In this document: positions 13,134-57,226 of the stretch, piece by piece | Position numbering within the stretch: the stretch's first letter is position 1 | How the letters are laid out: each line of letters starts with the position of its first letter | From: Squalus acanthias | Lineage: Eukaryota | Length of the DNA stretch: 64,000 nt | Assembly (NCBI GenBank): GCA_030390025.1 | Contig: CM059432.1 | Span: 69,752,001-69,816,000 of the forward strand | Reading direction: 5' to 3' | The notes under the pieces: model-generated | The model's input: only the letters and a program-made list of their open reading frames with translations | What the model was told of the DNA's origin: nothing | The model's database searches: none | Program-made: the position numbers and the translations under genes

Positions 13134-14218
13134 TTAGGGCTGTAGATAGGGCTTTAAACTAAATAGTGGGGGGGAGGGGTCAGGTGAGGAGAAATTTAGG
13201 AAGTTAAAGAGAACGGACAAGGCAATAGTGCAGGGTAGCGATAGGGGTAATGATAACCAGAGTGTGTCAGGAAGGGACAGAGCATGCAAACATAAGAGTG
13301 CACTAGCAAATAGGGCCAGAGTAGGGAAAAATGTTAAAAAGTCAAAATTGAAGGCTCTTTATCTGAATGCATGCAGCATTCGTAACAAGATAGATGAATT
13401 GACAGCACAAATAGAAATAAATGAGTATGATCTGATAGCCATTACAGAGACATGGTTGCAAGGTGACCAAGGCTAGGAACTGAATATTCAGGGCTATTTG
13501 ACATTTCGGAAGGATAGGCAGAAAGGAAAAGGAGGTGGGGTAGCTCTGTTAATAAAGGATGAGATCAGTACAGTAGTGACAAATGATCTTGGCTCGGAAG
13601 AGCAAGATGTAGAATCAGTTTGGGTGGAGATAAGAAATACAAAGGGAAAGAAGTCACTGGTGGGAGTAATCTATAGGCCCCCTAACATTAGCTACACTGT
13701 AGGACAAAGTATAAATCAAGAAATAATGGGGGCTTGTAAGAAAGGTACTGCAATAATCATGGGTGATTTTAATCTTCATATCGATTGGACAAATCAAATT
13801 GGCCAAGGTAGCCTTGAGGACGAGTTCATAGAGTGTATTTGGAATGGTTTCTTAGAACAATACATTGTGGAACCAACCAGGGAACAGGCTATTTTGGATC
13901 TGGTAATGTGTAATGAGACAGGGCTAATTAATGATCTCATAATAAAGGATCCTCTGGGGAAGAGTGATCATAACATGATAGAATTTCACATTCAGTTTGA
14001 GGGTGGGAAACTTGGGTCTGAAACTAGTGTCTTAAACTTAAATAAAGGCAATGACAAAGGTATGGAGACAGAGTTGGCTAAAGTGGACTGGAAAAATAGA
14101 TTAAATGGTAAGATGGTAGATAAGCAGTGGCAGACATTTAAGGAGATATTTCATAACTCTCAACAAATATATATTCCAGTAAGAAAGAAAGACTCTATGA
14201 GAAGGATCAACCATCCTT
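13134..14218 (+). mobile_element. CR1 LINE ORF2 endonuclease fragment
   Basis: LKALYLNACSIRNK..DLIAITETWL, GGGVALLIK, IYRPPN, IMGDFN, LGKSDHN (ORFs 13228-13476, 13498-14226). Same family as 34001-37051. Confidence 0.9.
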
Positions 14219-14219
14219 T

Positions 14220-14925
14220 TACATGACCACCATAATCATGCACAATTAGATCTGGCTTTATCACCTCACCCTCTCTGCTGCTTAATCTTCTTCCTACTCC
14301 AGCACCATCCCATCACATTTAACCCCCTTGAACCATCTTTCCCCTCTCCTACCATCCTCACCTCCATCATCAAGTGCAAGGTGTCATGGATTTCTATCTT
14401 CAAAAATGAGACCATCTACTCATCTGTCTCACTGTTCCCCTGCCCGCTGCTTCCCCTATTCACAAGCCTCCTGTTGCCTCCCTTATCCTAGTCCTGACCT
14501 ATGGTGGTCTGCAGCTTCTCCTCTATCTTCACTTGCCCTCATCAGGGTCATCTCCTCCATGAGACCTACTATGTGCTGCCTCAACTCTCTTTACACATAG
14601 CTTCTGACCATCCAATTACCTCACTTCAACCCAATGCTGTCATACATTGTCAACATCCTCCTTCTTTCAGGTGTTGCTCCCTCCAAAACTGTTGTGATCC
14701 CTTCATCTTAAAAAGCTCATCTTTGATCCCTTCACCTTTCCAACAACTGCTCCATTCCTAACCCTCCCTTCCCCTCGAAGGTCCTCCACTACACCACCAT
14801 CACCCAATTCAAAGCTATTCCTTCCCCATACTTATTATTCAGGTTGCTTCAGTCTGGCTTCCATCCTGTCCACAGCACTGAGACTGCCTTGTTCAAAGCT
14901 ACCAACGATATCTTGTGTGACCACA
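14220..14925 (+). mobile_element. Decayed L2-clade LINE RT fragment
   Basis: C/T-rich sequence ending in an L2-like QSGF.P.HSTETAL.KATNDIL segment (~14850-14915). Confidence 0.55.
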
Positions 14926-34000: not shown

Positions 34001-37000
34001 TAAATAGTGGGGGGAGGGTCCAGGTGAGCAGGAATTTAAAAAGTCAATGAGAAATGAAAAACCAATAGAGCAGGATAGAGATGGGGGAAAATAATAACCA
34101 GAGTGTGACAGGAAGGGACAGAATGTTTAAAAATAAATGTGCAACAGAAAATGGGGTAAAAACAAGGAGAAATGGTAAAAAGACAAAGTTAAAAGCTCTA
34201 TATCTGAATGCACGCAGCATTTGTAACAAGATAGATGAGTTGACGGCACAAATAGATACAAATGGGTATGATCTGATCGCCATTACACAGACGTGGCTGC
34301 ATGGTGACCAGGGCTGGGAACTGAATATTCCAGGGTACTTGACAATTCGTAAGGATAGACAGAAAGGATGGCTTTGTTGGTAAAGGATGGGATCAATGCA
34401 GTGAGAAGTGATATTGGCTCAGAAGATCAAGATATAGAATCGGTTTGGGTGGAGATAAAAAATAATAAGGGGAAAAGTCTCTGGTGGGCGAAGTCTACAG
34501 GCCCCCAAACAGTAGCAATACTGTTGGACAGAGTATAAATCAACAAATAATGAAGGCCTGTAAAAAAGGTACGGTAATAATCATGGGTGATATTAATCTC
34601 CGTATTGATTGGACAAATCAAATTGGCCTTGGTAGTCTTGAAGAGGAGTCCATAGAGTGTATCTGGGATGGTTTCCTAGAACAATATGTAATGGAACCAA
34701 CCAGGGAACAGGCTATCTTGGATCTGGTACTGTGTAATGAGACAGAATTAATAAATGATCTCATAGTAAAGGATCCTCTAGGAAAGAGTGATCATAGCAT
34801 GGTTGAATTTCAAATTCAGTTGGAGGGTGAGAAAGTTGTATCTCAAACCAGTGTCCTGATCTTAAACAAAGGCAATTACAATGGCATGAGGGCAGAACTG
34901 GCTAAAGTGGACTGGAAAAATAAATTAAAGGGTAAGACTGTTGAAATGCAGTGGCGGACATTTAAGGAGATATTTCATAACTCTCAACAAAAATATATTC
35001 CAGTGAGAAAGAAAGATTTTAAGAGAAGGGAGCACCATCCATGGCTAACTAAGGAAGTAAAGGATGGTATCAAATTGAAAATGAAGGCATACAATGTTGC
35101 CAAGATTGGTGGGAGGTCAGAGGATTGGGAAATTTTTAAAAACCAGCAAAGGATGACTAAAAAAATAATAGAGAGAAGATGAATTATGAGAGTAAACTGG
35201 CAAGAAATATTAAAACAGATAGTAAGAGCTTCTACAGGTATATAAAAAGGAAGAGAGTAGTTAAAATAAACGTTGGTCCCTTAGACGATGAGACTGGGGA
35301 ATTAATAATGGGGAATGGGGAAATGGCAGAGACTCTGAACAAATATTTGGTATCTGTCTTCATGGTAGAAGACACTAACAACATCCCAATAATGGACAAT
35401 CAAGGGACCATAGGGAGGGGGGAACTAAAGACAATCACTATCACTAAGGAAAAAGTACTTGGTAAAATAATGGGACTAAAAGTCGACAAGTCCCCTGGAC
35501 CAGATGGCCTGTATCCCAAGGTCTTAAAAGAAGTGGCTGCAGAGATACTGGATGCATTGGTTGCAATATACCAAAATTCCCTGGACTCTGGAGAGGTCCC
35601 AGCGGATTGGAAAACCGCAAATGTAGCACCCCTATTTAAGAAAGGAGGGAGACAGAAAGCAGGAAACTATAGACCAGTTAGCCTAACATCTGTCGTTGGG
35701 AAAATGCTGGAGTCCTTCATTAAGGAAGCAGTAGCAGGGCATTTGGAAAATCATGATGCAGTCAAGCAGAGTCAGCATGGTTTATGAAAGGGAAATCATG
35801 TTTAACAAATTTGCTGGAGTTCTTTGAGGATGTAACGAGCAGGATGGACAAAGGTGAGCCAGTGGGTGTGGTGTATTTGGATTTCCAGAAGGCATTCGAT
35901 AAGGTGTCACATAAAAGGTTACTGCATAAGATAAGAGCTTACGGAGTTGGGGGTAGAATATTAGCATGGATAGAGAATTGGCTCACTAACAGAAAGCAGA
36001 GAGTCGGGATAAATGGGTCATTTTTCGGTTGGCAAACGGTAACTAGTGGGGTGCCACAGGGATCGGTGCTGGGGTCTCAACTATTTACAATCTACATTAA
36101 TGACTTGGATGAAGGAACTGAGTGTAATGTAGCCAAGTTTGCGGATGATACAAAGATGGTTGGGAAAGCAAATTGTGCAGAGGACTCAAAGAATCTGCAA
36201 AGGGATATAGACAGGCTAAGTGAATGGGCAAACATTTGGTAGATGGAGTATAATGTGGGAAAGAGCGAGGTTATCCACTTTGGCAGGAAAAATAAAAAAT
36301 AAAATTATTATTTAAATGGAGAGAGATTACAAAATGCTACAGTTCAGAGGGACCTGGGGGTCCTTGTGCATGAAACACAAAAAGTTAGCATGCAGGTACA
36401 GCAAGTAATCAAAAAGGCAAATGGAATATTGGCCTTTATTGCAAGGGGGTTGGAGTATAAAAGCAGGGAAGTCCTGCTACAACTGTACAGGGTATTGGTG
36501 AGACCACACCTTGAGTACTGCGTACAGTTTTGGTCTCCATATTTAAGGAAGGATATACTTGCATTGGAGGCAGTTCAGAGACGATTCACTAGGTTAATTC
36601 CAGAGATGAGGGGGTTGACTTATGAAGAAAGGTTGAGCAGGTTGGGCCTATACTCATTGGAATTTAGAAGAATGAGAGGTGATCTTATTGAAACATATAA
36701 GATACTGAGGGGGCTCAACAAGGTAGATGCAGAGAGGATGTTTCCCCTCGTGGGGAAATCTAGAACACGGGGGCATAGTTTCAGAATAAAGGGTCGCCCT
36801 TTTAGAACTGAGATGAGGAGGAATTTCTTCTCTCAGCGGGTCATAAATCTGTGGAATTCTCTGCCCCAGAGAGCCGTGGAGGCTGGGTCATTAAATACTT
36901 TTAAGGTGGAGATAGACAGATTTTTGCAAGATAAGGAAGTGAAGGGTTATGGGGAGCGGGCGGGGAAGTGGCTTTGAGCCCAAGATCAGCCATGATCTTA

Positions 37001-46120: not shown

Positions 46121-46184
46121 CCGACCCCTGTAGCAGAGTTCTGGATGAGCTCAAGTTTACAGAGCATGGAGGATGGGATGCTTG

Positions 46185-47789
46185 TGTAAGGGATACTCTC
46201 CTGACCCTGCGTGTCTCGTAACCTGTGAGGTTCACGCGGCTCTGTGCAGCCTGTATGTCAGTGCGGGTCTAGGCCTGGTCTCCAGCCAGTCTGGGAACAC
46301 TAGACACCCCTGTGAGTGGTTCGAATCACTCTCCCTTACGGTTCTAGACACTGGACTTAGATGCGAGAGCAGTAATGGAGATAAAACTCATGTAGACTTG
46401 GTTTGAACGGTACGAAATGGAAAATCTTTATTGCATGATACTGAAAATTATGAAATACATGTCATATGCACAGATTAATGACAGTACAATCTTACAAACA
46501 GTTATAATCACTCTTAGGGAAACGAGGAACGACCAGCACAACGTAAATAGGGCACACATTACAAATATCCTTAATCTTTAAAACCCTCCCCTATTAATGT
46601 CTATCCTAAAACTAGCTTCGTAGGATCCCGAGACTCATGCTCACCACTCGTAATAACTCGGAGAAATCCCGAATAGCTGATCGGATGTTTTTCACCGCAG
46701 CACCCACGTGTTGGTCAGGAGATCTCCTGGTCCCACTTGTTTACTGCTTCTGCTGCTCGGTCAGTCGGCTGGACCGTCCGCTGTAGTGAAGACCTCTGTT
46801 GGTGGGCTTCAAAGTTTAATCGTGGAGCACCGTTGTCAATATCACTGATACGATGTGTTTACACAGTCCAGTTATCATTGATGCAATATGTCTTGTTAAA
46901 GAAGAAAACTTCCTGTCGAGAAGACTTGGCTGATCGACCTACAGGCGCGGTCGGGATTTACTGACCGTGGCGATGGATAAGGTCTTCTTCTCTTCTCCTC
47001 TCATCTCATCTCATCTCATCTCATCTCATCTCGGGCCTTCGGTTCCGCTGCCAGCTACCAACATAGGTCTTTGCAACAGTCTTTTACACAGGAGCAGCCA
47101 CGATGATAACAGCAACAAGCGGCAAGAGTCAAGAACACGAGGCAAGAGCCAAGAGCAAGAGGCCAGAGAGAGAATGGACGGTTTGGGGCCTGCAATTATA
47201 GTGCACAGTTCTTCCGTTTCCCGCCCAACTACAATGTCCATTCTTTTGTTTAAGGTTTGGCGCCCAAAAATGTCCTGTACGGGTGATCTCTGTCCTTAAT
47301 GGGTTTCGGGGCTACTCCTGAATGTTTGAGTACCTGTTAATATTTCTCCCATTGTTAAATCGGTCGGTGTTCCCCCTGGAGGGGTTTGGGGCTTCCAAGT
47401 GTCCTGTATAACTACCTGCTAACGGCTCTCTCATCGTAGAGCCGTTGGGAGTTTACATACTAATGTCCTTTGGATGGGCCCTTGATGGCTTTCCTTTGTA
47501 CCTGGGAGACCGATTCCAGTATCGATGTTTATACTGTAAACCCATAATGTCCTGTGTATTGTCTTCACTGTGCTGAATCGTTATCGATCTTGCAAGAATG
47601 TTTATTGGAACGCCATCTTGTCTGCCTGTTGAAAAGTCTAGAATGTTCTGTCACGAGGTGCGGCGGCCATTTTACAGGCTGCTTGTGTCCAATTTAAACC
47701 TGACAGCATTCTGCTGAAATAAAAGCTGTTTGAACGAAACTTTGTGTTTTCTCCTTATTAATCAAATCGCGATAATTGCGAATTCTACA
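46185..47789 (-). repeat. 3' LTR (1605 bp)
   Basis: Direct repeat of 53827-55426. Starts TGTAAGGG and ends ATTCTACA on +. Six TCATC units. Confidence 0.95.
46427..46432 (-). terminator. Candidate poly(A) signal AATAAA of the 3' LTR
   Basis: TTTATT on +, ~240 bp from the outer end of the LTR (same site at 54069-54074 in the 5' LTR). Confidence 0.55.
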
Positions 47790-47800
47790 GTCCCTCCTGT
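47790..47800 (-). other. Polypurine tract (ACAGGAGGGAC) abutting the 3' LTR
   Basis: Purine-rich stretch immediately 5' of TGTAGAATT on the minus strand. Confidence 0.7.
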
Positions 47801-48213
47801 TGATGCGAATAACTCCGCTTATCGTATCAAAAATCTCAGTGGTGAGCAATCTTATCTCGATTTCACTCCGAATCCAGTAAATTAATCCCATAAAATTTTA
47901 ACTTGACTAGGGTCTCTGTGTCGTCCTTATTTCCCAAGAAAATCACATTTTATATCACCGTAGGCATCATTTGCCCTTAAACTTACACCACTTGTTTTCC
48001 TTTCCGGCGTAACCAGGCCGATACCTCACGCATCACCTGTATATTTGTCTTTTATTCAAGGGAAGGAAAAACAAAACCCAAAAACCAAACAATCAACACC
48101 ATCACCAAAATAAACAAATCCCAACTCTTAAACATATCGAGTTTCCAACGTATTTACAGTGAGTACAAACTTCCGCGGCGCACGTGGCGAGCGGGAGTGA
48201 CGCCGTTTTCCCA

Positions 48214-50565
48214 TTACACTGCGCTCTCATCGTGCACGCGCACGTAACGTTCTCGCCACTCTCCCGTGTTCTCATGCTTGGTGAGGCGTTTGTCTCTTTT
48301 ACAATGTATGAACAAAAGGTATACTACAATAAACACTTGACAGACGACTAAAATGTGGGAGGCTATTCTGACCCATGAGGGCACTTCAATATTCGTGAAC
48401 AGATTCCACCACGGTGGAACCACTATGTCCAAAATGTCTGTACCTATCTCGACGGTTTTCTGTTCTAATGTATAAAAATGCTTTTGTGACACCGCGACGG
48501 CTTTCAGAAGTTTGGTTAAATGCTCGGGGAGAGGGGGAATGAGGTACCCAAAATGTGCGACAAATCGCTGCAAGTCGGTAAAATTCTCTTTTACTGTGAG
48601 ATGAACAGTGGATGGTTCAGGGATTGGGATAATTCGCTGTTGTGCTACTTGAACTTCAGCCCTGGGTTTAAAACAGAAACTGCTGTCACTCACCGGACAC
48701 CGGCTACGGTTTCCATGCTGGTAGTGTTGCGCTGCAGTGGTAACACAGTATGTTCCACCCCCGATGTATGCTACCTGCGGAGGCACATGATCTTGTGCCA
48801 TTGCCTCCATGGTGCAATTCATGGACTTGGCGCCAGCCGTTCTGAACCCGCACTGTGGTGTTAAAAAGGCATTCAAGTGCTGGGGGCACAGTATTATGTG
48901 TGCTCCCCTGCCACGACAACCAGAGAGATCTGTACCTGTCATCGTTTGCTCCCAGCGGATGACGTAAGGTGGAACCGCTGCATAACGAATGTGGGCTCCC
49001 CCCTGAATGACACCAATGTTCTCTACCCGATACACCGGGGCGGGCTTTGCTGTGTTGCCCAAAACCGGCATGCGTAATACTATTCCCATAATAGTATGGT
49101 TTGAACGTCCGCAGTCCACGGGGACTGGGTAAGCTTCTGAAGCTAGCCTGAGCTGGCACGGACTTAATGCATTCTGAAAAGGGTGGAGCGCCCGCAGGTG
49201 TTTGTTACTTATCCAGGACGGAACCAAACCTTGTTTTAAATCCTCCAAATTACTGCGGCCCTCGCCCAGTAACCACGCCCCGTAAAGCACGCACACCTCG
49301 TTCTGCGCAGCTTGATCGGATGCATTCCGATCTTCCCTAATCAGGGCATTTACCGTACGCGCATGTTTCTCCAGCTCTGCTATGATTTCCTTTAAGTGGA
49401 GTGTCATGGCTTGGTCCTCGTGCAGACCCGACCCTACCACTTTATTCTCATCTGTAAGAATATCCTTTAACTGTGTTTTTAAACCATTAATCTGGGTCTG
49501 CAGCTCCACACTGTCTAGAGCGTTGACCACAGATGTCCCTGTGTTAAAAGCAGTGAACGCATCGTTCACCAAACCCCTTCTTTGCCTCCCAACTTGATCC
49601 AAAACTTCCTGCGGTGCGGTGTACAAACTTGTCTTATCAATTTCTGCAAAATCAAACTCGTAAAATTGCCTGAACATCTTGGTCAACAGGACCTGGTACA
49701 ACTGTTCCGTCTTTTTGGGGCACCACTCTGGTAACCGTACCTCAGTGAGATTTAAAATCACCGAGGCCACCGCGTAATGCACTCCCTGAAATAGTATCTG
49801 GTCTGTGGGGACCAGTACCAAACCGTTCCCGGGTCCCTTACTAGTTTTAGGGCACCCTTCTTCCTCAGTTAGAACTACCGGAATCGTGGGCGGGGCTTTG
49901 CGTGGGCGCGTAATGAGCTCAGTGGCATTTACTGGGATCGGAGAGTATGGGGCTCCGCACCCCCTGGTGCTCGCATCCCACCTCATCCCCTGTCCGTTAT
50001 CCTGCCACTGGTTAATAAAGAATATGGAGATGCCTTTGGGGCAAACGTACTTTGACCCCCACATACAAACATAAATCCCCTCATCCGGTTCCCACCATTT
50101 GTCCCAACAGACTTTCACTTGTCCATCTGTCCCCGTAATTGTCCGATGGGTATTATTACCCAGTCGCTCCCACTCAACCGAAGAGTTCCTCATAGTTTTG
50201 CTCAGCTTTCGCAGCCACCACCATCGGCTCAATGGGACATTCCCACTGCAGGTCAAACAAATCCGTTTGCCGACGGTGACGCTGATCCTGGGTGCGATGA
50301 TCCGTACTTTGGGGCACATTAAAGAAGTCTCTTTGTAGGCGAACCCCGATGTGCTGGAATACTCCGTTGAGTTCGTTCCCAGCCATCCTGGCCACCTTCC
50401 CTTGTGGAAATAGGTGCTGGTCCCTTCTGCCTTCCGTCTCCCGGTCCCATCCACCGCGATGGGGGCCGTGTCCCCGGAACATCCAAACACCACGACATCC
50501 TTGGTGAGGCCCCGATAGGCCAATCCACATCCGATTGCCGCGAGCAATACTATGAGTCGTTCCAT
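48214..50565 (-). CDS. env: Env-like class I fusion glycoprotein, 783 aa, with N-terminal Ig-like domain
   Basis: Signal peptide MERLIVLLAAIGCGLA. Ig signature VTVGKRICLTC..W..DEGIYVC. Furin site RQRR (aa 327-330) followed by a fusion-peptide-like GLVNDAFTAFNTGTSVVNAL and heptad repeats. Cys-rich region, TM IASHILVVCQVFIVVYLLFIHC, and basic tail with YVRV. Several N-glycosylation sequons. Confidence 0.9.
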   Translation of the reverse strand: MERLIVLLAAIGCGLAYRGLTKDVVVFGCSGDTAPIAVDGTGRRKAEGTSTYFHKGRWPGWLGTNSTEYSSTSGFAYKETSLMCPKVRIIAPRISVTVGKRICLTCSGNVPLSRWWWLRKLSKTMRNSSVEWERLGNNTHRTITGTDGQVKVCWDKWWEPDEGIYVCMWGSKYVCPKGISIFFINQWQDNGQGMRWDASTRGCGAPYSPIPVNATELITRPRKAPPTIPVVLTEEEGCPKTSKGPGNGLVLVPTDQILFQGVHYAVASVILNLTEVRLPEWCPKKTEQLYQVLLTKMFRQFYEFDFAEIDKTSLYTAPQEVLDQVGRQRRGLVNDAFTAFNTGTSVVNALDSVELQTQINGLKTQLKDILTDENKVVGSGLHEDQAMTLHLKEIIAELEKHARTVNALIREDRNASDQAAQNEVCVLYGAWLLGEGRSNLEDLKQGLVPSWISNKHLRALHPFQNALSPCQLRLASEAYPVPVDCGRSNHTIMGIVLRMPVLGNTAKPAPVYRVENIGVIQGGAHIRYAAVPPYVIRWEQTMTGTDLSGCRGRGAHIILCPQHLNAFLTPQCGFRTAGAKSMNCTMEAMAQDHVPPQVAYIGGGTYCVTTAAQHYQHGNRSRCPVSDSSFCFKPRAEVQVAQQRIIPIPEPSTVHLTVKENFTDLQRFVAHFGYLIPPLPEHLTKLLKAVAVSQKHFYTLEQKTVEIGTDILDIVVPPWWNLFTNIEVPSWVRIASHILVVCQVFIVVYLLFIHCKRDKRLTKHENTGEWRERYVRVHDESAV

Positions 50566-50578
50566 CCTTCCTTGGTTC

Positions 50579-50600
50579 CTGTGATCAGATAGAATGAGGT
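50579..50600 (-). promoter_or_regulatory. Candidate splice acceptor for env mRNA
   Basis: Minus strand CCTCATTCTATCTGATCACAG|GAACCAAGGAAGGATG: pyrimidine-rich tract and CAG|G 13 nt before the env ATG. Confidence 0.5.
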
Positions 50601-50849
50601 AGCCAGCCTCGCAAAAAGTCTCTGGCTTTTGTGAAGGGTGAGCGGGTCCCCTGACCTCGCCTCACGTAAACTTCAACGTTTGCTAAATAGACTTCCTCTA
50701 AACCTAGCCTTAAAACTCCCATCATTTTGTCGTTATCTGTTAAAAACACTACAAACTTAACCTTATTAAAACTACTTAAAACTTTAAACTAAAACTTAAA
50801 ACCTTAAACTAATAACTTTACAATGCCGCCCGTTCTCAGGGCGGCCCCT

Positions 50850-52010
50850 TTAAATCCTGAGAAGGCTGCTGCGAGCTCTTCCCGACGGTGGGAGGGCACT
50901 GACCCTTCCCTCTGATCTGCCGCAGCCTGTTGCTGCGCTGACCCTTTCCTCTGATCTGCCGCAGCCTGTTACTGCTTCGATGTGGCCTGTCTCTACCCGG
51001 GTTATCTTAACCTGAAACTTACGCCCTGGGGCAGCCTGTGGACCTGACCACATCTTCCTGGGCTGGGGTACTCTGCTTGACCTACGGGGAATTGCTATGG
51101 GCGGGGGCTCCGTGACGGACGGACCGGGTTCCGAGACCTCCAACGGGATGACCTGGGGTTCCATCACAGTCGCCAGCTCCGCCTCCGCTGACTCCGCCTC
51201 CCTAACCTCGGGGCTGGCAGTTCGTGGCCCCGCCCTGCTCGGCCCAGCAGGCAGCCCTTCACTCGTGAACTCTGCCTCCCCTGAGGACTGGACGTTCAAA
51301 GCGGGCGGCCACACCTCTGGGAACCACATAGCGGCTGGCCCGGCCTCCTCTAGCTCCTTCCTCCTGCTGTCGGGACCTGCAGCTTGTGTGTCCACCCCGT
51401 ATGGATCTCTACCTAGCGGCCCCAATCCTTCCAGACCGTTCCTCTGAAACCACCCGTCATCATCACTATGCTCATCTGCACTATCCTCATCTGACCAGGG
51501 TACCCTGGGTTCTTCGTCATCTAACCCCCAACTCCAGAAAAACGCTGCATGATCGTCCGGGATGTCCCTTCCCCTGATGCAAGCTGCTACGCCTGCCTGT
51601 GTGCCTTGTGGTCCTACCTGGGGCTGTGTTTCCCCACTCGCAGGTCTGGCCCCTCCCTTAAGACAGGCCACCGCCCCTGCTTGTTTCTGTGAAATCTCAC
51701 CTGCTGGAGGCTGCAGATTTCTATCCTGTTTTAAATCCTCATACTCCCTGCTCCTGGCTACCCTGTAGGCTGTTTTTATCTCTCTAAGCTGCCCTTCTAG
51801 CCTGAGCACGTCTAACTTTCCCATTGCTCGGGCGTTCTCCTCCCGCAAGGTCTGCTCTCTAAGCTGCCCTTCCAGCCCATCTATTTTCCCTATTAAGCGG
51901 GCGTTCTCCTCCCGCAAGGCCTGCTCTTTTAACCTGGCCTCCTCACCGCAGACCCCCTCCTGTGCGTGTCTTTTAAAAGGACACAGGTAGGCAGGCTGCG
52001 TGGGCTCTAG
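50850..52010 (-). CDS. ORF-X: 386-aa non-enzymatic extension in frame with gag (putative Gag-X readthrough product, 990 aa)
   Basis: After the gag TGA the frame stays open: LEPTQPAYLCPFKRHAQEGVCGEEARLKEQALREENARL... (31 codons before the TTG at 51917 used by the ORF track). Coiled-coil repeats, then acidic/Pro-rich sequence. No D(T/S)G protease, YxDD RT, RNase H or integrase core motifs. Confidence 0.75.
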   Translation of the reverse strand, partial: LEPTQPAYLCPFKRHAQEGVCGEEARLKEQALREENARLIGKIDGLEGQLREQTLREENARAMGKLDVLRLEGQLREIKTAYRVARSREYEDLKQDRNLQPPAGEISQKQAGAVACLKGGARPASGETQPQVGPQGTQAGVAACIRGRDIPDDHAAFFWSWGLDDEEPRVPWSDEDSADEHSDDDGWFQRNGLEGLGPLGRDPYGVDTQAAGPDSRRKELEEAGPAAMWFPEVWPPALNVQSSGEAEFTSEGLPAGPSRAGPRTASPEVREAESAEAELATVMEPQVIPLEVSEPGPSVTEPPPIAIPRRSSRVPQPRKMWSGPQAAPGRKFQVKITRVETGHIEAVTGCGRSEERVSAATGCGRSEGRVSALPPSGRARSSLLRI

Positions 52011-53822
52011 TCATTGGGTACTATTAGACGGTCCTGCGGCACCTACGGGGCCGGTTGCGACCGCCACCTGTCCACGCGCATTCAAAACCATCTTGCGCAT
52101 GGCTCCTAACACTGCTTCGAGGTCGTCGGGAGGGGTGGGTGCCTTTGCTTCCTTAGGCGGGACAGGCGCCTGGGCTCGGACCGCGGGATTTTTATCCTTG
52201 GAATCCTTCCAAGGGTTCCTGCAGTGCTTGCGCCAGTGCCCTGTCTTCCCACACCCGTAACAGGCATTACTTGCCTGTGGGGCGCGATTACCCTCCTGAT
52301 GCCACTCTCTTTGAGCCGGGGCTGCGGGTCGTACCTCATGTACTCTTCCCTTAAAGGGACGTGTCGTCATACCCCTTATGTTACGGTAACCTAACGTGAG
52401 TCGATTCAAGACCGACTCTTCCGTAAGGTTGAGGTCATTGGGATCGAACCAGGCTTTTGCCTGCTCTCTAACGGCTGGTAAACTGTTGGCTATTATGCAC
52501 CTAAGCCAATGAATTAAAGCGGCGCCTTCCACATCTTCGCGCTCGGGCGCACCTAGACAGCTGCGCTCATATACTGGCCACAGCCTGTCGGCAAAAACCT
52601 TCGGGGGTTCTCCCTCCATCTGCACTGTCTGTCCCACTCTAGCAAACGGACCTCCGTCGTTCGCTCCCACTACTTCTAGGACCTCATTTTTCAATTCCTC
52701 ATAACTTTTATTACCCCTCTTGCTATCGCCTGAGAGACACTGAAGGACCGAGCTATCTAACGAGAACAGCAGCATTTTTGCTGTCTCCCCATCATCGCAG
52801 CCGTTGATGGCTGCGGCTTGCTCAACTTCCCTAAAATGTACGGAAGGGTCGTCTATCTCGGTCAGCTTCCTTACGTGGTTTATCATGGCCCTCAGCTGAT
52901 GTGAACTGTGAGGCAACACCAGCTGTCCGAGGAGATCCCCCGGTTCTTCCCCACCGTTTCTGCTTGGGCCCCTTTTAATCCCCGTTACTGGATACAACGA
53001 TCCCTTTTCTACCTCCTTTTCAACGGGCTCTTTTGCTTCTTCCGTTGCTTCCTCCCTAACCCAGGTTTCTGAATAGCTGGGTGGCGCGGAGGGCGCAGTG
53101 GCTACTACTTCTTCTGCTTTACTTGGTGGGGAATTTCTAAATCTCTCATTTACTAGCGGCTGGCGTGCCGACGGATTAATAAGGCACACCATGCCGTTCG
53201 CATTATTCACGGCCTTTTTGAGGCTCTCTATCTCTTTTTCGCAGGCGCTATGGTCGGCTCCCTGAAACTTATCCTCAAGGGCCAACTTATACGCCGACCT
53301 AACCCCCATTAAGCTCTCTTCTTGAGTTCTTATCTGGGCAGCTTGACGGTTACATCTTTCCTTCATCCTACTCTCGTTTAATTTTGCTTCAGTGATCTGG
53401 CACTCGAGATACTCTACCCTTGTTTTAAGGTAACTGGAGACTTCCTGGCTTTCCTGGCGTAACTCATTTAAACTCTTAATGAGCGCCTCCCCTCCAGAAA
53501 CCTTCTCCTCCATTTCCTCCTCTAGATGCTTGATTCGAGCGGTTAGCGCTGTATTGGTCTGGTTTGAAATCTGAACCTGCCTTTTGTAGCACATAAGCCA
53601 GACTGCTTTCTCAACTGCCTTTTTATGCTCCTTACTATCCGTCCACCTTTCAGCTGCCTCTAGTGGGCTCTTATCCGCTAACAATTCGCTTATCCACTTT
53701 TTCGTTAGATTAACCTTTCCAAATACGTAATCCGCTATCTTTTCCTGCATCACATTTCGTACAGTCATTCCAAAATCTAACACACTACCCTCTCGCTGCC
53801 AGTGTCCTGCCGCGGTCGCCAT
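52011..53822 (-). CDS. gag: Gag polyprotein, 603 aa
   Basis: Directly after the 5' LTR/PBS. N-terminal coiled coil (~aa 85-205), PSAPPSY late motif (aa 244-250), helical capsid-like region, CX2CX4HX4C knuckle CYGCGKTGHWRKHC (52221-52262). Confidence 0.9.
   Translation of the reverse strand: MATAAGHWQREGSVLDFGMTVRNVMQEKIADYVFGKVNLTKKWISELLADKSPLEAAERWTDSKEHKKAVEKAVWLMCYKRQVQISNQTNTALTARIKHLEEEMEEKVSGGEALIKSLNELRQESQEVSSYLKTRVEYLECQITEAKLNESRMKERCNRQAAQIRTQEESLMGVRSAYKLALEDKFQGADHSACEKEIESLKKAVNNANGMVCLINPSARQPLVNERFRNSPPSKAEEVVATAPSAPPSYSETWVREEATEEAKEPVEKEVEKGSLYPVTGIKRGPSRNGGEEPGDLLGQLVLPHSSHQLRAMINHVRKLTEIDDPSVHFREVEQAAAINGCDDGETAKMLLFSLDSSVLQCLSGDSKRGNKSYEELKNEVLEVVGANDGGPFARVGQTVQMEGEPPKVFADRLWPVYERSCLGAPEREDVEGAALIHWLRCIIANSLPAVREQAKAWFDPNDLNLTEESVLNRLTLGYRNIRGMTTRPFKGRVHEVRPAAPAQREWHQEGNRAPQASNACYGCGKTGHWRKHCRNPWKDSKDKNPAVRAQAPVPPKEAKAPTPPDDLEAVLGAMRKMVLNARGQVAVATGPVGAAGPSNSTQ
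53804..53821 (-). promoter_or_regulatory. Primer binding site, tRNA-Arg type
   Basis: Minus strand TGGCGACCGCGGCAGGAC, 5 nt inside the 5' LTR boundary. Complementary over 18 nt to the 3' end (...GTCCTGCCGCGGTCG-CCA) of a vertebrate tRNA-Arg(UCG) as I recall its sequence. Confidence 0.85.
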
Positions 53823-53826
53823 TTTC

Positions 53827-55426
53827 TGTAAGGGATACTCTCCTGACCCTGCGTGTCTCGTAACCTGTGAGGTTCACGCGGCTCTGTGCAGCCTGTATGT
53901 CAGTGCGGGTCTAGGCCTGGTCTCCAGCCAGTCTGGGAACACTAGACACCCCTGTGAGTGGTTCGAATCACTCTCCCTTACGGTTCTAGACACTGGACTT
54001 AGATGCGAGAGCAGTAATGGAGATAAAACTCATGTAGACTTGGTTTGAACGGTACGAAATGGAAAATCTTTATTGCATGATACTGAAAATTATGAAATAC
54101 ATGTCATATGCACAGATTAATGACAGTACAATCTTACAAACAGTTATAATCACTCTTAGGGAAACGAGGAACGACCAGCACAACGTAAATAGGGCACACA
54201 TTACAAATATCCTTAATCTTTAAAACCCTCCCCTATTAATGTCTATCCTAAAACTAGCTTCGTAGGATCCCGAGACTCATGCTCACCACTCGTAATAACT
54301 CGGAGAAATCCCGAATAGCTGATCGGATGTTTTTCACCGCAGCACCCACGTGTTGGTCAGGAGATCTCCTGGTCCCACTTGTTTACTGCTTCTGCTGCTC
54401 GGTCAGTCGGCTGGACCGTCCGCTGTAGTGAAGACCTCTGTTGGTGGGCTTCAAAGTTTAATCGTGGAGCACCGTTGTCAATATCACTGATACGATGTGT
54501 TTACACAGTCCAGTTATCATTGATGCAATATGTCTTGTTAAAGAAGAAAACTTCCTGTCGAGAAGACTTGGCTGATCGACCTACAGGCGCGGTCGGGATT
54601 TACTGACCGTGGCGATGGATAAGGTCTTCTTCTCTTCTCCTCTCATCTCATCTCATCTCATCTCATCTCGGGCCTTCGGTTCCGCTGCCAGCTACCAACA
54701 TAGGTCTTTGCAACAGTCTTTTACACAGGAGCAGCCACGATGATAACAGCAACAAGCGGCAAGAGTCAAGAACACGAGGCAAGAGCCAAGAGCAAGAGGC
54801 CAGAGAGAGAATGGACGGTTTGGGGCCTGCAATTATAGTGCACAGTTCTTCCGTTTCCCGCCCAACTACAATGTCCATTCTTTTGTTTAAGGTTTGGCGC
54901 CCAAAAATGTCCTGTACGGGTGATCTCTGTCCTTAATGGGTTTCGGGGCTACTCCTGAATGTTTGAGTACCTGTTAATATTTCTCCCATTGTTAAATCGG
55001 TCGGTGTTCCCCCTGGAGGGGTTTGGGGCTTCCAAGTGTCCTGTATAACTACCTGCTAACGGCTCTCTCATCGTAGAGCCGTTGGGAGTTTACATACTAA
55101 TGTCCTTTGGATGGGCCCTTGATGGCTTTCCTTTGTACCTGGGAGACCGATTCCAGTATCGATGTTTATACTGTAAACCCATAATGTCCTGTGTATTGTC
55201 TTCACTGTGCTGAATCGTTATCGATCTTGCAAGAATGTTTATTGGAACGCCATCTTGTCTGCCTGTTGAAAAGTCTAGAATGTTCTGTCACGAGGTGCGG
55301 CGGCCATTTTACAGGCTGCTTGTGTCCAATTTAAACCTGACAGCATTCTGCTGAAATAAAAGCTGTTTGAACGAAACTTTGTGTTTTCTCCTTATTAATC
55401 AAATCGCGATAATTGCGAATTCTACA
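53827..55426 (-). repeat. 5' LTR (1600 bp)
   Basis: Direct repeat of 46185-47789 with five TCATC units. Followed on the minus strand by the PBS. Confidence 0.95.
54805..54900 (-). promoter_or_regulatory. Candidate LTR core promoter (TATA-like, Inr-like, two E2F-consensus sites)
   Basis: Minus strand TATAATT (54837-54831), CCATTCT ~25 nt downstream. TTTCCCGC (54854-54861) and TTTGGCGC (54893-54900) just upstream. Confidence 0.45.
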
Positions 55427-56079
55427 CTTGCCTGGAGAATATATAAAAAGTCAAATCTGGAGGTGACAAAGGCATGGATGAGAGTTTCAGCAGCAGATGG
55501 ACTGACACAGACATGCTGTTTTAGTGCCAGTGCCACTTCCCTCCAGATGGCATGAGTGACAGTTCTAGCAAGTCTCCTGCCATGGACACCCAACAGTCTG
55601 TGGTCTAGTAAGTTGGGGGTTTAGCGCCGGGCGTTACCACCCAAATCGGGAAAAAAATGGCAGCCACTGCATTTCCGCACACTGCCGGCGGGTCCCGTGG
55701 TGGCTGCCGATGTCCGTGCTCACTACACTTATGGAAATTATGCAGATCGTGTCATCAGTGAGTGTGCAATGTCTACTGGATGCCCGATCTGCGATTTTCC
55801 AGTTCGCCTCTCCACTTACTGGCCTGTCTTAATTGCGACCAGCTGAGCAAGCGTTGACAAGCAGCTAGGAGGTTCCAGCAGTGATATCTAAAGGGATCAT
55901 CAGCAACAACTTGCATCTAACATGTTTCTTCAGGTTGACTGGCTCTGTGCAACTTGCTGCAACTCCAGCAGCTTTATAAACTTCTTTCAAGGTCCTAAGG
56001 TAACAGGGAGTGTTGGTGCAAGTGGAGAACGTCTTCATTCTTATTTAAAGGCTTCTGCTCACAACACTTGCTCACAGTC

Positions 56080-57226
56080 ATGGGGGCTCTACTGGCAGTA
56101 CCCCCTCGTGCTCGAGTATCTTCGGGAGAGGGATCGGAGGCAGCGAAGAGGAGAAGCTGCACGCAGAGTGAGGAGGAGGAGGGCCAGGTGAGCTCTCAAC
56201 AGGAGGCCTTACCCATCTAAGGTCTTCCGAGACCACTTCTCTTATATCCACTTAAGCGAAGAGCAGTGTATTAGGAGGCTTCGCTTCACCAAGGAGGTGG
56301 TCACAGAACTCTGCCACCTTCTGCAACCAGACATGCATCTGGAGAACAGGGCAACCACAGCTCTGCCAATGGCTCCAAAGGTCACCGTGGTCCTCAATTT
56401 CTTCACCAGCGGATCCTTCCAATCTGCAGCAGGAGACATAGCTAACATCTCCCAGTTCGCCATCCATCGCTTCATCCGAGAGGTCACAACGACTCTCTAC
56501 ACCAGGAGAAGGGACTATGTTTTCATCTCTCTGAGCAGAGAGAAGCAAGAGGAGCATGCATCTGGCTTAGCCAGGATTGCGGGCTTCCCCTTGGTGCAGG
56601 AGGCCATCAACTGCAACCACATGGCTTTGCGGGTGCCGCATAACAATCCTGAGACCTTCCGTAACCGCAAAAGCTACCACTCATTTAAGGTGCAGTTGTT
56701 GTGTGACAACAACCAGCATTTCCTGATGGTCAATGCCCGCTATCCTGGCAACAGTCATGATGACTTCATCCAATGTGCCAGCAATCTTCTAGCCACCACG
56801 TCAAACCTGAGGGTGGCTGCTTGGAGACAAGGGCTATCCTCTCTGCACCTGGCTCATGACTCCTCTCCACAACCCCAACAGTCGTGCCCAGCACTCCTTT
56901 AATGAGAGCCATGCTGCCACCAAGAACATTATCAAACAGACCACGGGCTGCTGAAGCAACGGTTCCGCAGCTTTGACCGCTCGGGAGGAGCCCTCCAGTA
57001 CTCGGCGGAGCGGGTGCCCCATTTTGTTGGGGTCTGCTGCATGCTTCACAACTTGGCCATCATGAGGGCGCAGCCCCTGCCAGCAAGGATTGGGGGACCA
57101 CCTCAGGAAGAGGAAGCGGGAAAAGAGGAGGAGGAAGACGAGGAGGAAGGGAGGAGGCAGGCAGAAAATCCCCATTCAGCATGGGCTGTCCGTGAATGCC
57201 TCATCAGACTCCGATTCCCTGAATGA
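56080..57226 (+). pseudogene. HARBI1-like DDE transposase, disrupted
   Basis: MGALLAV..RR*ALNRRPYP..FRDHFSYIHLSEEQCIRRLRFTKEVVTELCHLLQPD..FTSGSFQS..GFPLVQEAINCNH..NRKSYHS..YPGNSHDD..LGDKGY..CCMLHNL. Premature stop and frameshifts. Confidence 0.85.

Follow-up and report, generated by a model that had tools for sequence, protein, structure and literature searches.

Introduction

Amplification of endogenous retroviruses (ERVs) is usually linked to loss of env, as Magiorkinis is said to have concluded in 2012. The described systems closest to the element analyzed here, a provirus-like insertion with gag and env and without pol enzymes at positions 46185 to 55426 of a 64-kb stretch of the Squalus acanthias genome (the window: 64,000 nucleotides of assembly GCA_030390025.1, contig CM059432.1, positions 69,752,001 to 69,816,000), each share part of its organization. 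The SnRV-like or clade Huo ERVs, including snakehead retrovirus (SnRV) and lineage I of the elephant-shark CmiERV (PMC4422223, PMC6001957, PMC12193657), resemble the family treated here in their reverse transcriptase (RT) motifs, their basal-grade position in Retroviridae, an in-frame gag-pol stop and their presence in chondrichthyans; ERVs of a class III SnRV-like grade have already been described in the elephant shark (PMC4422223). With lokiretroviruses and zebrafish BHIKHARI (PMC7947760, PMC12067270) the family has in common an F-like Env, a coiled-coil-like region in Gag, dual RNase H and the occurrence of non-autonomous families. Athila of Arabidopsis (PMC2410132) has the arrangement LTR-gag-env-LTR (LTR, long terminal repeat) without pol; its intact open reading frames (ORFs) are under purifying selection, distant families recombine with each other, and mobilisation takes place in trans. 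In mouse ETn/MusD, koala recKoRV/KoRV and the D and C types of cattle ERVK[2-1-LTR] (PMC10924933), the center of a competent ERV has been replaced by a piece of an older retroelement, and the resulting trans-complemented elements have reached high copy number. Finally, foamy Env and the F proteins of paramyxo- and pneumoviruses are subclass Ib fusogens (PMC11468914), and the F proteins are matched by the fold predicted for the present Env.

In this work we compare the window element with its relatives in the same genome and in public databases. We find that it very probably belongs, as a young and non-autonomous copy, to an active class III ERV family (SnRV-like/clade Huo grade) and is mobilised by a pol-bearing sister. 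Judged by alignment, its LTR, primer-binding site (PBS), gag, Pol tail and env are clearly those of a pol-bearing family present in the same genome. In place of the enzyme part of pol stands, in frame, a cassette derived from a Gag coiled coil; the pol-less layout has been amplified some 1,000-fold, and this cassette recurs at the same position in two further, diverged pol-less subfamilies.

Results

Copy number and the pol-bearing partner

Copies were searched for in the 3.71-Gb assembly that holds the window. An LTR search in which 40 of 4,149 candidates were scored returned 41 matches, with an LTR identity of 95-97% and pairs spaced by ~10.97 kb or ~7.65 kb. All five long copies fetched have gag, a pol of 1,487-1,500 aa and env open, with pol in the frame of gag behind the identical stop, and they are ~98-99% identical to the window element except within a 3.68-kb segment. 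Their Pol matches nine Pfam families, among them RT, two RNase H types and integrase, and its domains are protease (PR), RT, tether, RNase H, integrase (IN) and SH3, the series from PR to IN fitting lokiretroviruses and all other retroviruses alike. The same search on the window's Gag, Env and the frame between them, named ORF-X in a first-pass annotation made from the sequence alone, returned no PR, RT, RNase H or IN family and no other informative family, in keeping with the enzyme-free interior that this annotation had reported. With the enzymes absent from the window element and a complete sister family with the same LTR ends and PBS in the same genome, the element would depend on a helper, as had been proposed.

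The pol-less junction has 1,087 genomic matches and the long, pol-bearing junction 2,171 (control 0 in both cases, allowing up to one mismatch). The breakpoints of the window element are identical in 16 of 16 short loci aligned, one of them the window's own locus, and are found again in all six further short copies fetched, of which five have gag open, six the post-stop frame and five env. Twelve other two-LTR copies were inspected for target-site duplications (TSDs), leaving out locus L029, which consists of two solo LTRs; a clear 4-bp TSD with differing flanks was present in nine, and LTR mismatches ranged from 0 to 4. The expectation that the layout would recur at independent insertions is thus borne out. 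A one-off deletion or an assembly artefact, for which we see practically no chance, is refuted by the junction matches, by the shared breakpoints and by a contig from a sequencing run of another organism that spans the left junction (X5, 51843-52049).

Among the other copies, one (L026, G000:C19:44748200-44757000) carries a different internal deletion, in which gag, PR and RT are gone, the RNase H-integrase part is present and env is frameshifted, and has its own TSD. Cassette-bearing elements also occur in tandem runs with spacings of ~6.4 and 7.7 kb (G000:C3:64.28-64.32 Mb; C1:143.66-143.67 Mb).

The cassette between gag and the Pol tail

What had been described as a novel ORF-X is a chimera, read in the frame of gag behind a stop of leaky type and composed of ~11 codons of the start of pol, a 111-aa cassette and the Pol C-terminal tail of ~264 aa, which accounts for ~70% of the frame. 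The tail is ~98% identical in DNA to the long copies from its start onward and matches Pol residues 1206-1500 by blastp, and the cassette occupies the place of the 3.68-kb pol segment that encodes PR, RT, tether, RNase H, IN and SH3. Past SH3, the Pro/Glu-rich Pol tail of this family is unusually long (~270 aa); it evolves near-neutrally yet stays open, and the frog and coelacanth relatives listed lack it.

Against the Gag, Pol and Env of the window, the window's own form of the cassette matched nothing significantly, and its link with Gag becomes visible only with a longer form from a subfamily that we label C (the labels A, B and C were coined in this analysis, the window belonging to A). 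This longest form is homologous to Gag residues ~140-217, with 45% identity to the Gag of C (E 1e-18) and 32% to that of the window, against which it scores 130 vs a maximum of 60 in 500 shuffles. The ESM Atlas was uninformative on the cassette (best score 0.84), and a profile of Env did not match ORF-X.

An internal 20-mer of the cassette has 782 genomic matches, many of them without the window's junction, and six of eight such loci fall in the diverged subfamilies B and C. Both subfamilies, each represented by one example, have the layout LTR-PBS-gag-TGA-cassette-tail-env-LTR. The B example has a Gag 67% and an Env 93% identical to those of the window and a pair of 1.7-kb LTRs 99% alike; in the C example the corresponding figures are 44%, 69% and 98% (0.82-kb LTRs), and gag and env hold stops. 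With the 375 genomic matches of the B/C junction, pol-less copies total ~1,460, vs ~2,170 that bear pol. All 13 loci picked by the end of a B/C gag run on into the cassette and none into protease. Synonymous divergence (dS) of the cassette between subfamilies is 0.12-0.28, vs 0.68 to saturation in the adjacent gag; the right-hand crossovers of the cassette differ between loci; and a B-type Pol tail lies ~3.61 kb downstream of long-type junctions at eight listed places on contig C1, as judged from coordinates only. From these data we infer that the cassette would have a single origin, by duplication of the Gag coiled-coil segment, and would then have been transferred by template switching.

The distance from the gag stop to a downstream anchor falls into ten classes (279-396 nt), every one a multiple of three, among the 29 scorable loci of 37, with one internal stop; the anchor was not found in the remaining eight, where the frame is thus unscored, and some classes stem from codon-phased repeats and are not all independent. 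At one locus (L072, G000:C3:22098700-22099300) the cassette is broken by sequence that reads like the family's LTR end, probably a nested insertion.

All 11 copies listed, long and short, end gag with TGACTAG, which corresponds to UGA-CUAG, a leaky context for which readthrough of ~1% or more is described (PMC13517186). For a stem-loop downstream of the stop, z was -2.5 in the window (124 nt) vs 0.7 in a long copy; over 80 nt in 13 sequences z ranged from -0.2 to -1.7, the inner stem recurring without significance. No splice joint was seen in the contigs of four sequencing runs, whose RNA status is guessed or unknown.

Taxonomic placement of the partner

Frog and coelacanth ERVs are nearest to the partner RT, with 51% identity, ahead of P0018 (41%) and P0193 (34.5%). 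In the Wang and Han supplement, the RT of P0018 is nearly letter-for-letter equal to the SnRV row, and that of P0193 carries the loki motifs, which the partner RT lacks; counted by eye over two blocks, the partner motifs are identical to SnRV at 60 of 101 positions and to Loki-Pma at 43 of 101. The RT tree comprised 44 rows chosen from ~200 RT segments; loki and SnRV were each represented by a single reference, and foamy viruses and ERV-L by none. In it P0193 is sister to all other retroviral rows, and the partner RT lies inside a clade (100/98) that excludes loki, in a basal grade with the frog and coelacanth ERVs whose basal branches do not resolve. In the approximately unbiased (AU) test, grouping the query with loki was rejected (p=0.037), and its grouping with SnRV was neither rejected (p=0.125) nor recovered. 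Membership in Metaviridae, including the errantiviruses, is contradicted by the dual RNase H and by the separation of the partner RT from the gypsy outgroup (100/100).

The best matches of the partner Pol bear the automatic name 'NYNRIN-like', as gamma-like matches do too. The two chondrichthyan genomes looked up in the loki supplement of PMC7947760 bear no positive mark. From its RT the partner family appears to lie inside Retroviridae; it fits the class III SnRV-like grade best, not the lokiretroviruses.

Predicted fold of Env

A model of Env built on a 37-row alignment (predicted local distance difference test, pLDDT, 63; predicted template modelling score, pTM, 0.46) matches paramyxo- and pneumovirus F proteins in a Foldseek search of the PDB, the best being F of human parainfluenza virus 3 (hPIV3; E 4.6e-11, template modelling scores 0.29/0.48). 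In BFVD it matches F-type glycoproteins, including the Env of WDSV (walleye dermal sarcoma virus) and WEHV (walleye epidermal hyperplasia virus). The F-type Env of the first-pass annotation is upheld at the level of the model, which predicts an F-type class I fusogen fold. The WDSV and WEHV-1 matches have E about 1e-7 and hint that epsilonretrovirus Env may also be F-like; a fish filovirus glycoprotein is third in the BFVD ranking. Because foamy Env is F-like (PMC11468914) and the WDSV and WEHV Envs also match the model, the F fold is not diagnostic of loki.

Pfam PF00523 was matched by none of the 37 Env family members, and a single-sequence model of the Env N-terminus was unusable (pLDDT 34). 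A candidate immunoglobulin (Ig)-like domain in the surface part gives signals below curated cut-offs (Ig_3, E 0.079 in the window Env and 0.0085 in homolog P0134; V-set, 0.045 in P0159), and a bamboo-shark homolog carries the name 'Ig-like domain-containing'. The closest sequence homologs of Env are from skate (75%) and sawshark (53-59%), followed by other sharks and frogs, an order that suggests a cartilaginous fish as the host. Two sawshark gene models (P0007, P0008) join Env-family pieces to Niban-like or zinc-finger genes and are probably annotation chimeras.

Selection and exchange between short and long copies

Substitutions were counted as synonymous to non-synonymous. The env gene is under strong purifying selection in both forms, with 10:1 private and 22:3 shared changes in short copies and 34:5 and 8:0 in long ones. 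The gag of short copies has 21:12 private and 7:8 shared changes. Within subfamily A, the corresponding counts of the cassette are 4:6 and 1:6 (not significant); those of the Pol tail are 1:11 and 3:8, its ratio of non-synonymous to synonymous rates (dN/dS) being about 1 or higher. A comparison of B with C gives the cassette a dN/dS of 0.22-0.25 over 67 codons, and gag and env of both subfamilies have values of 0.07-0.26 relative to the window where dS is finite.

The env genes of short copies do not form a clade (AU p=0.006; the same test for gag, p=0.27). The short and long forms therefore recombine, env having by this test evidently been exchanged between them, and the constraint on env is not assignable to the short form alone. 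Since env is under purifying selection, the data suggest that the family as a whole may spread partly via enveloped particles.

Anatomy of the element and its surroundings

The features of the element, which reads on the minus strand, are collected in Table 1 in window coordinates. As the first-pass annotation had described, they make up a complete provirus-like unit, with LTRs, TSD, PBS and polypurine tract all present. The LTR pair has zero substitutions, its sole difference being one 5-nt microsatellite indel; over 1.6 kb, at the shark rate of 2.2e-10 per site per year assumed in PMC4422223, this corresponds to an age of less than ~4 Myr. The TSD reads CAAG in the sense of the element.

Table 1. 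Features of the pol-less element and its flanking duplications (window positions)
Feature	Coordinates	Strand	Remarks
Target-site duplication, left copy, 4 bp	46181..46184	-	
3' LTR, 1,605 bp, TG...CA	46185..47789	-	
Polypurine tract	47791..47798	-	1 nt ahead of 3' LTR; same sequence in 12/12 other two-LTR copies
env, 783 aa	48214..50565	-	N-terminal hydrophobic segment, RQRR cleavage motif at 49587-49576, coiled coil, C-terminal transmembrane helix
Candidate Ig-like domain, Env surface part, aa ~88-167	50065..50304	-	Weak Pfam signal
Pol C-terminal tail, ~264 aa, past integrase and SH3	50850..51644	-	Forms 3' part of 'ORF-X'
In-frame cassette, 334 bp, standing for 3.68 kb of pol	51645..51978	-	Contains 75-bp internal duplication
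gag stop, UGA-CUAG context	52007..52013	-	In phase with downstream ORF; putative readthrough site
gag, 603 aa	52011..53822	-	N-terminal coiled-coil region, capsid-like middle, one CCHC knuckle at 52262-52221
Primer-binding site, 18 nt	53804..53821	-	Complement of tRNA-Arg(TCG) 3' end plus CCA; overlaps gag start codon
5' LTR, 1,600 bp	53827..55426	-	
Target-site duplication, right copy, 4 bp	55427..55430	-	

The PBS lies 5 nt inside the 5' LTR. The tRNA-Arg(TCG) 3'-end pattern complementary to it has 424 matches genome-wide vs 0 for a control, and ARAGORN called a tRNA-Arg TCG at both of two loci carrying the pattern. This primer tRNA sits in large tandem arrays with a unit of ~1.62 kb (G000:C26:38.99-42.2 Mb; L047, L048). 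SnRV, too, reportedly has an Arg-tRNA primer and a Gag coiled coil, an account going back to Hart in 1996. Here as in subfamilies B and C, the start codon of gag shares its bases with the opening of the PBS (53804-53822), so that gag follows the 5' LTR with no leader in between; packaging signals would have to sit in the LTR or inside gag.

Three long minus-strand frames are open, as previously noted: gag, env and, past the gag stop, a frame of 386 aa (324 aa when counted from the first ATG). A feature match of Gag to Retrotrans_gag/Ty3 capsid in the Atlas (0.94) is a lead only. The remaining window frames of at least 200 aa are short pieces, in line with the decayed surroundings described earlier, and three of six match LINE (long interspersed nuclear element) endonuclease or DDE_Tnp_4 in Pfam; broken LINE pieces with endonuclease matches and a DDE_Tnp_4 transposase fragment lie at 13477-14226, 34469-36977 and 56192-56902.

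Discussion

Mobilisation by the pol-bearing sister could proceed as follows. The short RNA would be co-packaged with the long form, or into its particles, and the long form would supply PR, RT and IN. Template switching during reverse transcription would have taken the cassette out of older pol-less lineages and placed it on today's autonomous backbone, and may go on refreshing gag, tail and env. Gag would be translated normally from the genomic RNA, UGA readthrough would yield a minor Gag-cassette-tail fusion in place of Gag-Pol, and Env would presumably come from a spliced RNA. Several points weigh against this account. Trans-mobilisation, co-packaging, expression, splicing and readthrough are all read from DNA alone; the junction counts are matches of 20-23-mers and include tandem arrays, possibly duplicate contigs and recombinants with B gag (L067 is among the 1,087); the copies examined are those most like the window, and young and intact ones are hence over-represented; and the RT placement has a single reference each for loki and SnRV, with basal branches unresolved.

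Whether the short form contributes to the partnership is a separate matter. Short copies may supply functional Gag and Env and a selected Gag-cassette fusion, co-assembling by means of its extra coiled coil, in a division of labor with the enzyme-bearing form, a reading that we entertain while leaning slightly against it. It would fit the open frames of the further short copies, the private changes in their env and gag, the low dN/dS of B/C gag and env together with the absence of a pol-bearing B/C gag in 13 loci, the ten stop-to-anchor lengths that are all multiples of three, the cassette dN/dS between B and C, and the precedent of Athila, where pol-less elements keep intact ORFs under purifying selection (PMC2410132). 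Env is shuffled between the forms, though, and its signal of selection may come from the long form, while the cassette in A is without significant constraint, the tail evolves at a dN/dS of ~1 or more, codon-phased repeats preserve frame unaided in some length classes, and frame is unscored in the loci where the anchor was not found. The same intermixing of env, neutral tail and unconstrained cassette, together with the C example whose gag and env hold stops, would suit a pure cis-parasite, whose spread is driven by efficiency of packaging or copying, with gag and env intact through youth and recombinational refreshing and the post-stop frame open against RNA decay or by chance. ETn/MusD, recKoRV and the bovine D-type (PMC10924933) offer parallels. 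These parallels lose coding capacity, however, and neither the low dN/dS of B and C gags only 67% and 44% identical to that of A, with no pol-bearing B/C gag seen in 13 loci, nor the frame kept across ten lengths is what such a parasite would lead one to expect; we give this account, too, somewhat less than an even chance. The fuller proposal that a transferable Gag-derived cassette repeatedly makes satellites of a class III family that still give working Gag, F-type Env and a selected readthrough fusion, and hence that a cooperative two-component retrovirus is maintained by recombination, is rather unlikely on present evidence.

The first-pass annotation had further suggested a loki-like family, that is, a lokiretrovirus lineage in a cartilaginous fish, and the F-type Env fold, the RXRR motif, the coiled-coil-like N-terminus of Gag (compare the 'smc-gag' of loki), the dual RNase H and the NYNRIN-like Pol names would all agree with it. 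Against this stand RT motifs that differ from those of Loki-Pma and Loki-Aro and resemble SnRV, the order of RT identities, the exclusion of loki in the tree and its rejection in the AU test, and the fact that peptides of the three nearest named matches were not found in the portion of the loki supplement examined. We regard this assignment as highly improbable and retain the class III SnRV-like grade for the partner. An F-fold Env on a non-loki class III lineage in chondrichthyans would bear on the idea of F-type Env as ancestral for Retroviridae (scenarios 1 and 3 of Wang and Han).

Comparison with known systems

In the literature searched, no description was found of this family or of a shared Gag-derived cassette replacing pol; most subscription papers and Repbase/Dfam lay outside the search, and a library entry is possible. 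A scan of viral contigs with the partner Pol found nothing. The partner is set apart from SnRV by its nearest RTs, which are those of frog and coelacanth, and by its gag stop, UGA-CUAG here vs UAGGGC in SnRV (PMC13517186). Lokiretroviruses differ in that the partner RT does not group with them, and Bik-1 and Bik-2 of BHIKHARI are gag-only, with neither pol nor env (PMC12067270). Sequence identity to foamy Env and the viral F proteins is 10-14%; the present Env has its candidate Ig-like N-terminal domain, and foamy Env is not among the top PDB matches listed.

An amplified pol-less layout with gag and env, which the first-pass annotation had taken as distinctive, is confirmed in this genome, and its novelty as a layout is not, as Athila already shows it (PMC2410132). 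Athila is a plant Ty3/gypsy element, however, and no Gag-derived in-frame replacement cassette is seen in the passages of that source examined. In the mouse, koala and bovine central-swap ERVs only portions of the flanking genes remain, and the bovine D-types are without intact ORFs (PMC10924933), whereas here gag and env are full-length and open, as is the post-stop frame, and a single cassette occurs in three subfamilies. The movement of one cassette between lineages provides a large natural data set on whether defective retroviral genomes cooperate or only parasitise. The defective vertebrate ERVs compared lose coding capacity; in this shark the pol-less copies retain gag and env beside their more numerous pol-bearing relatives.

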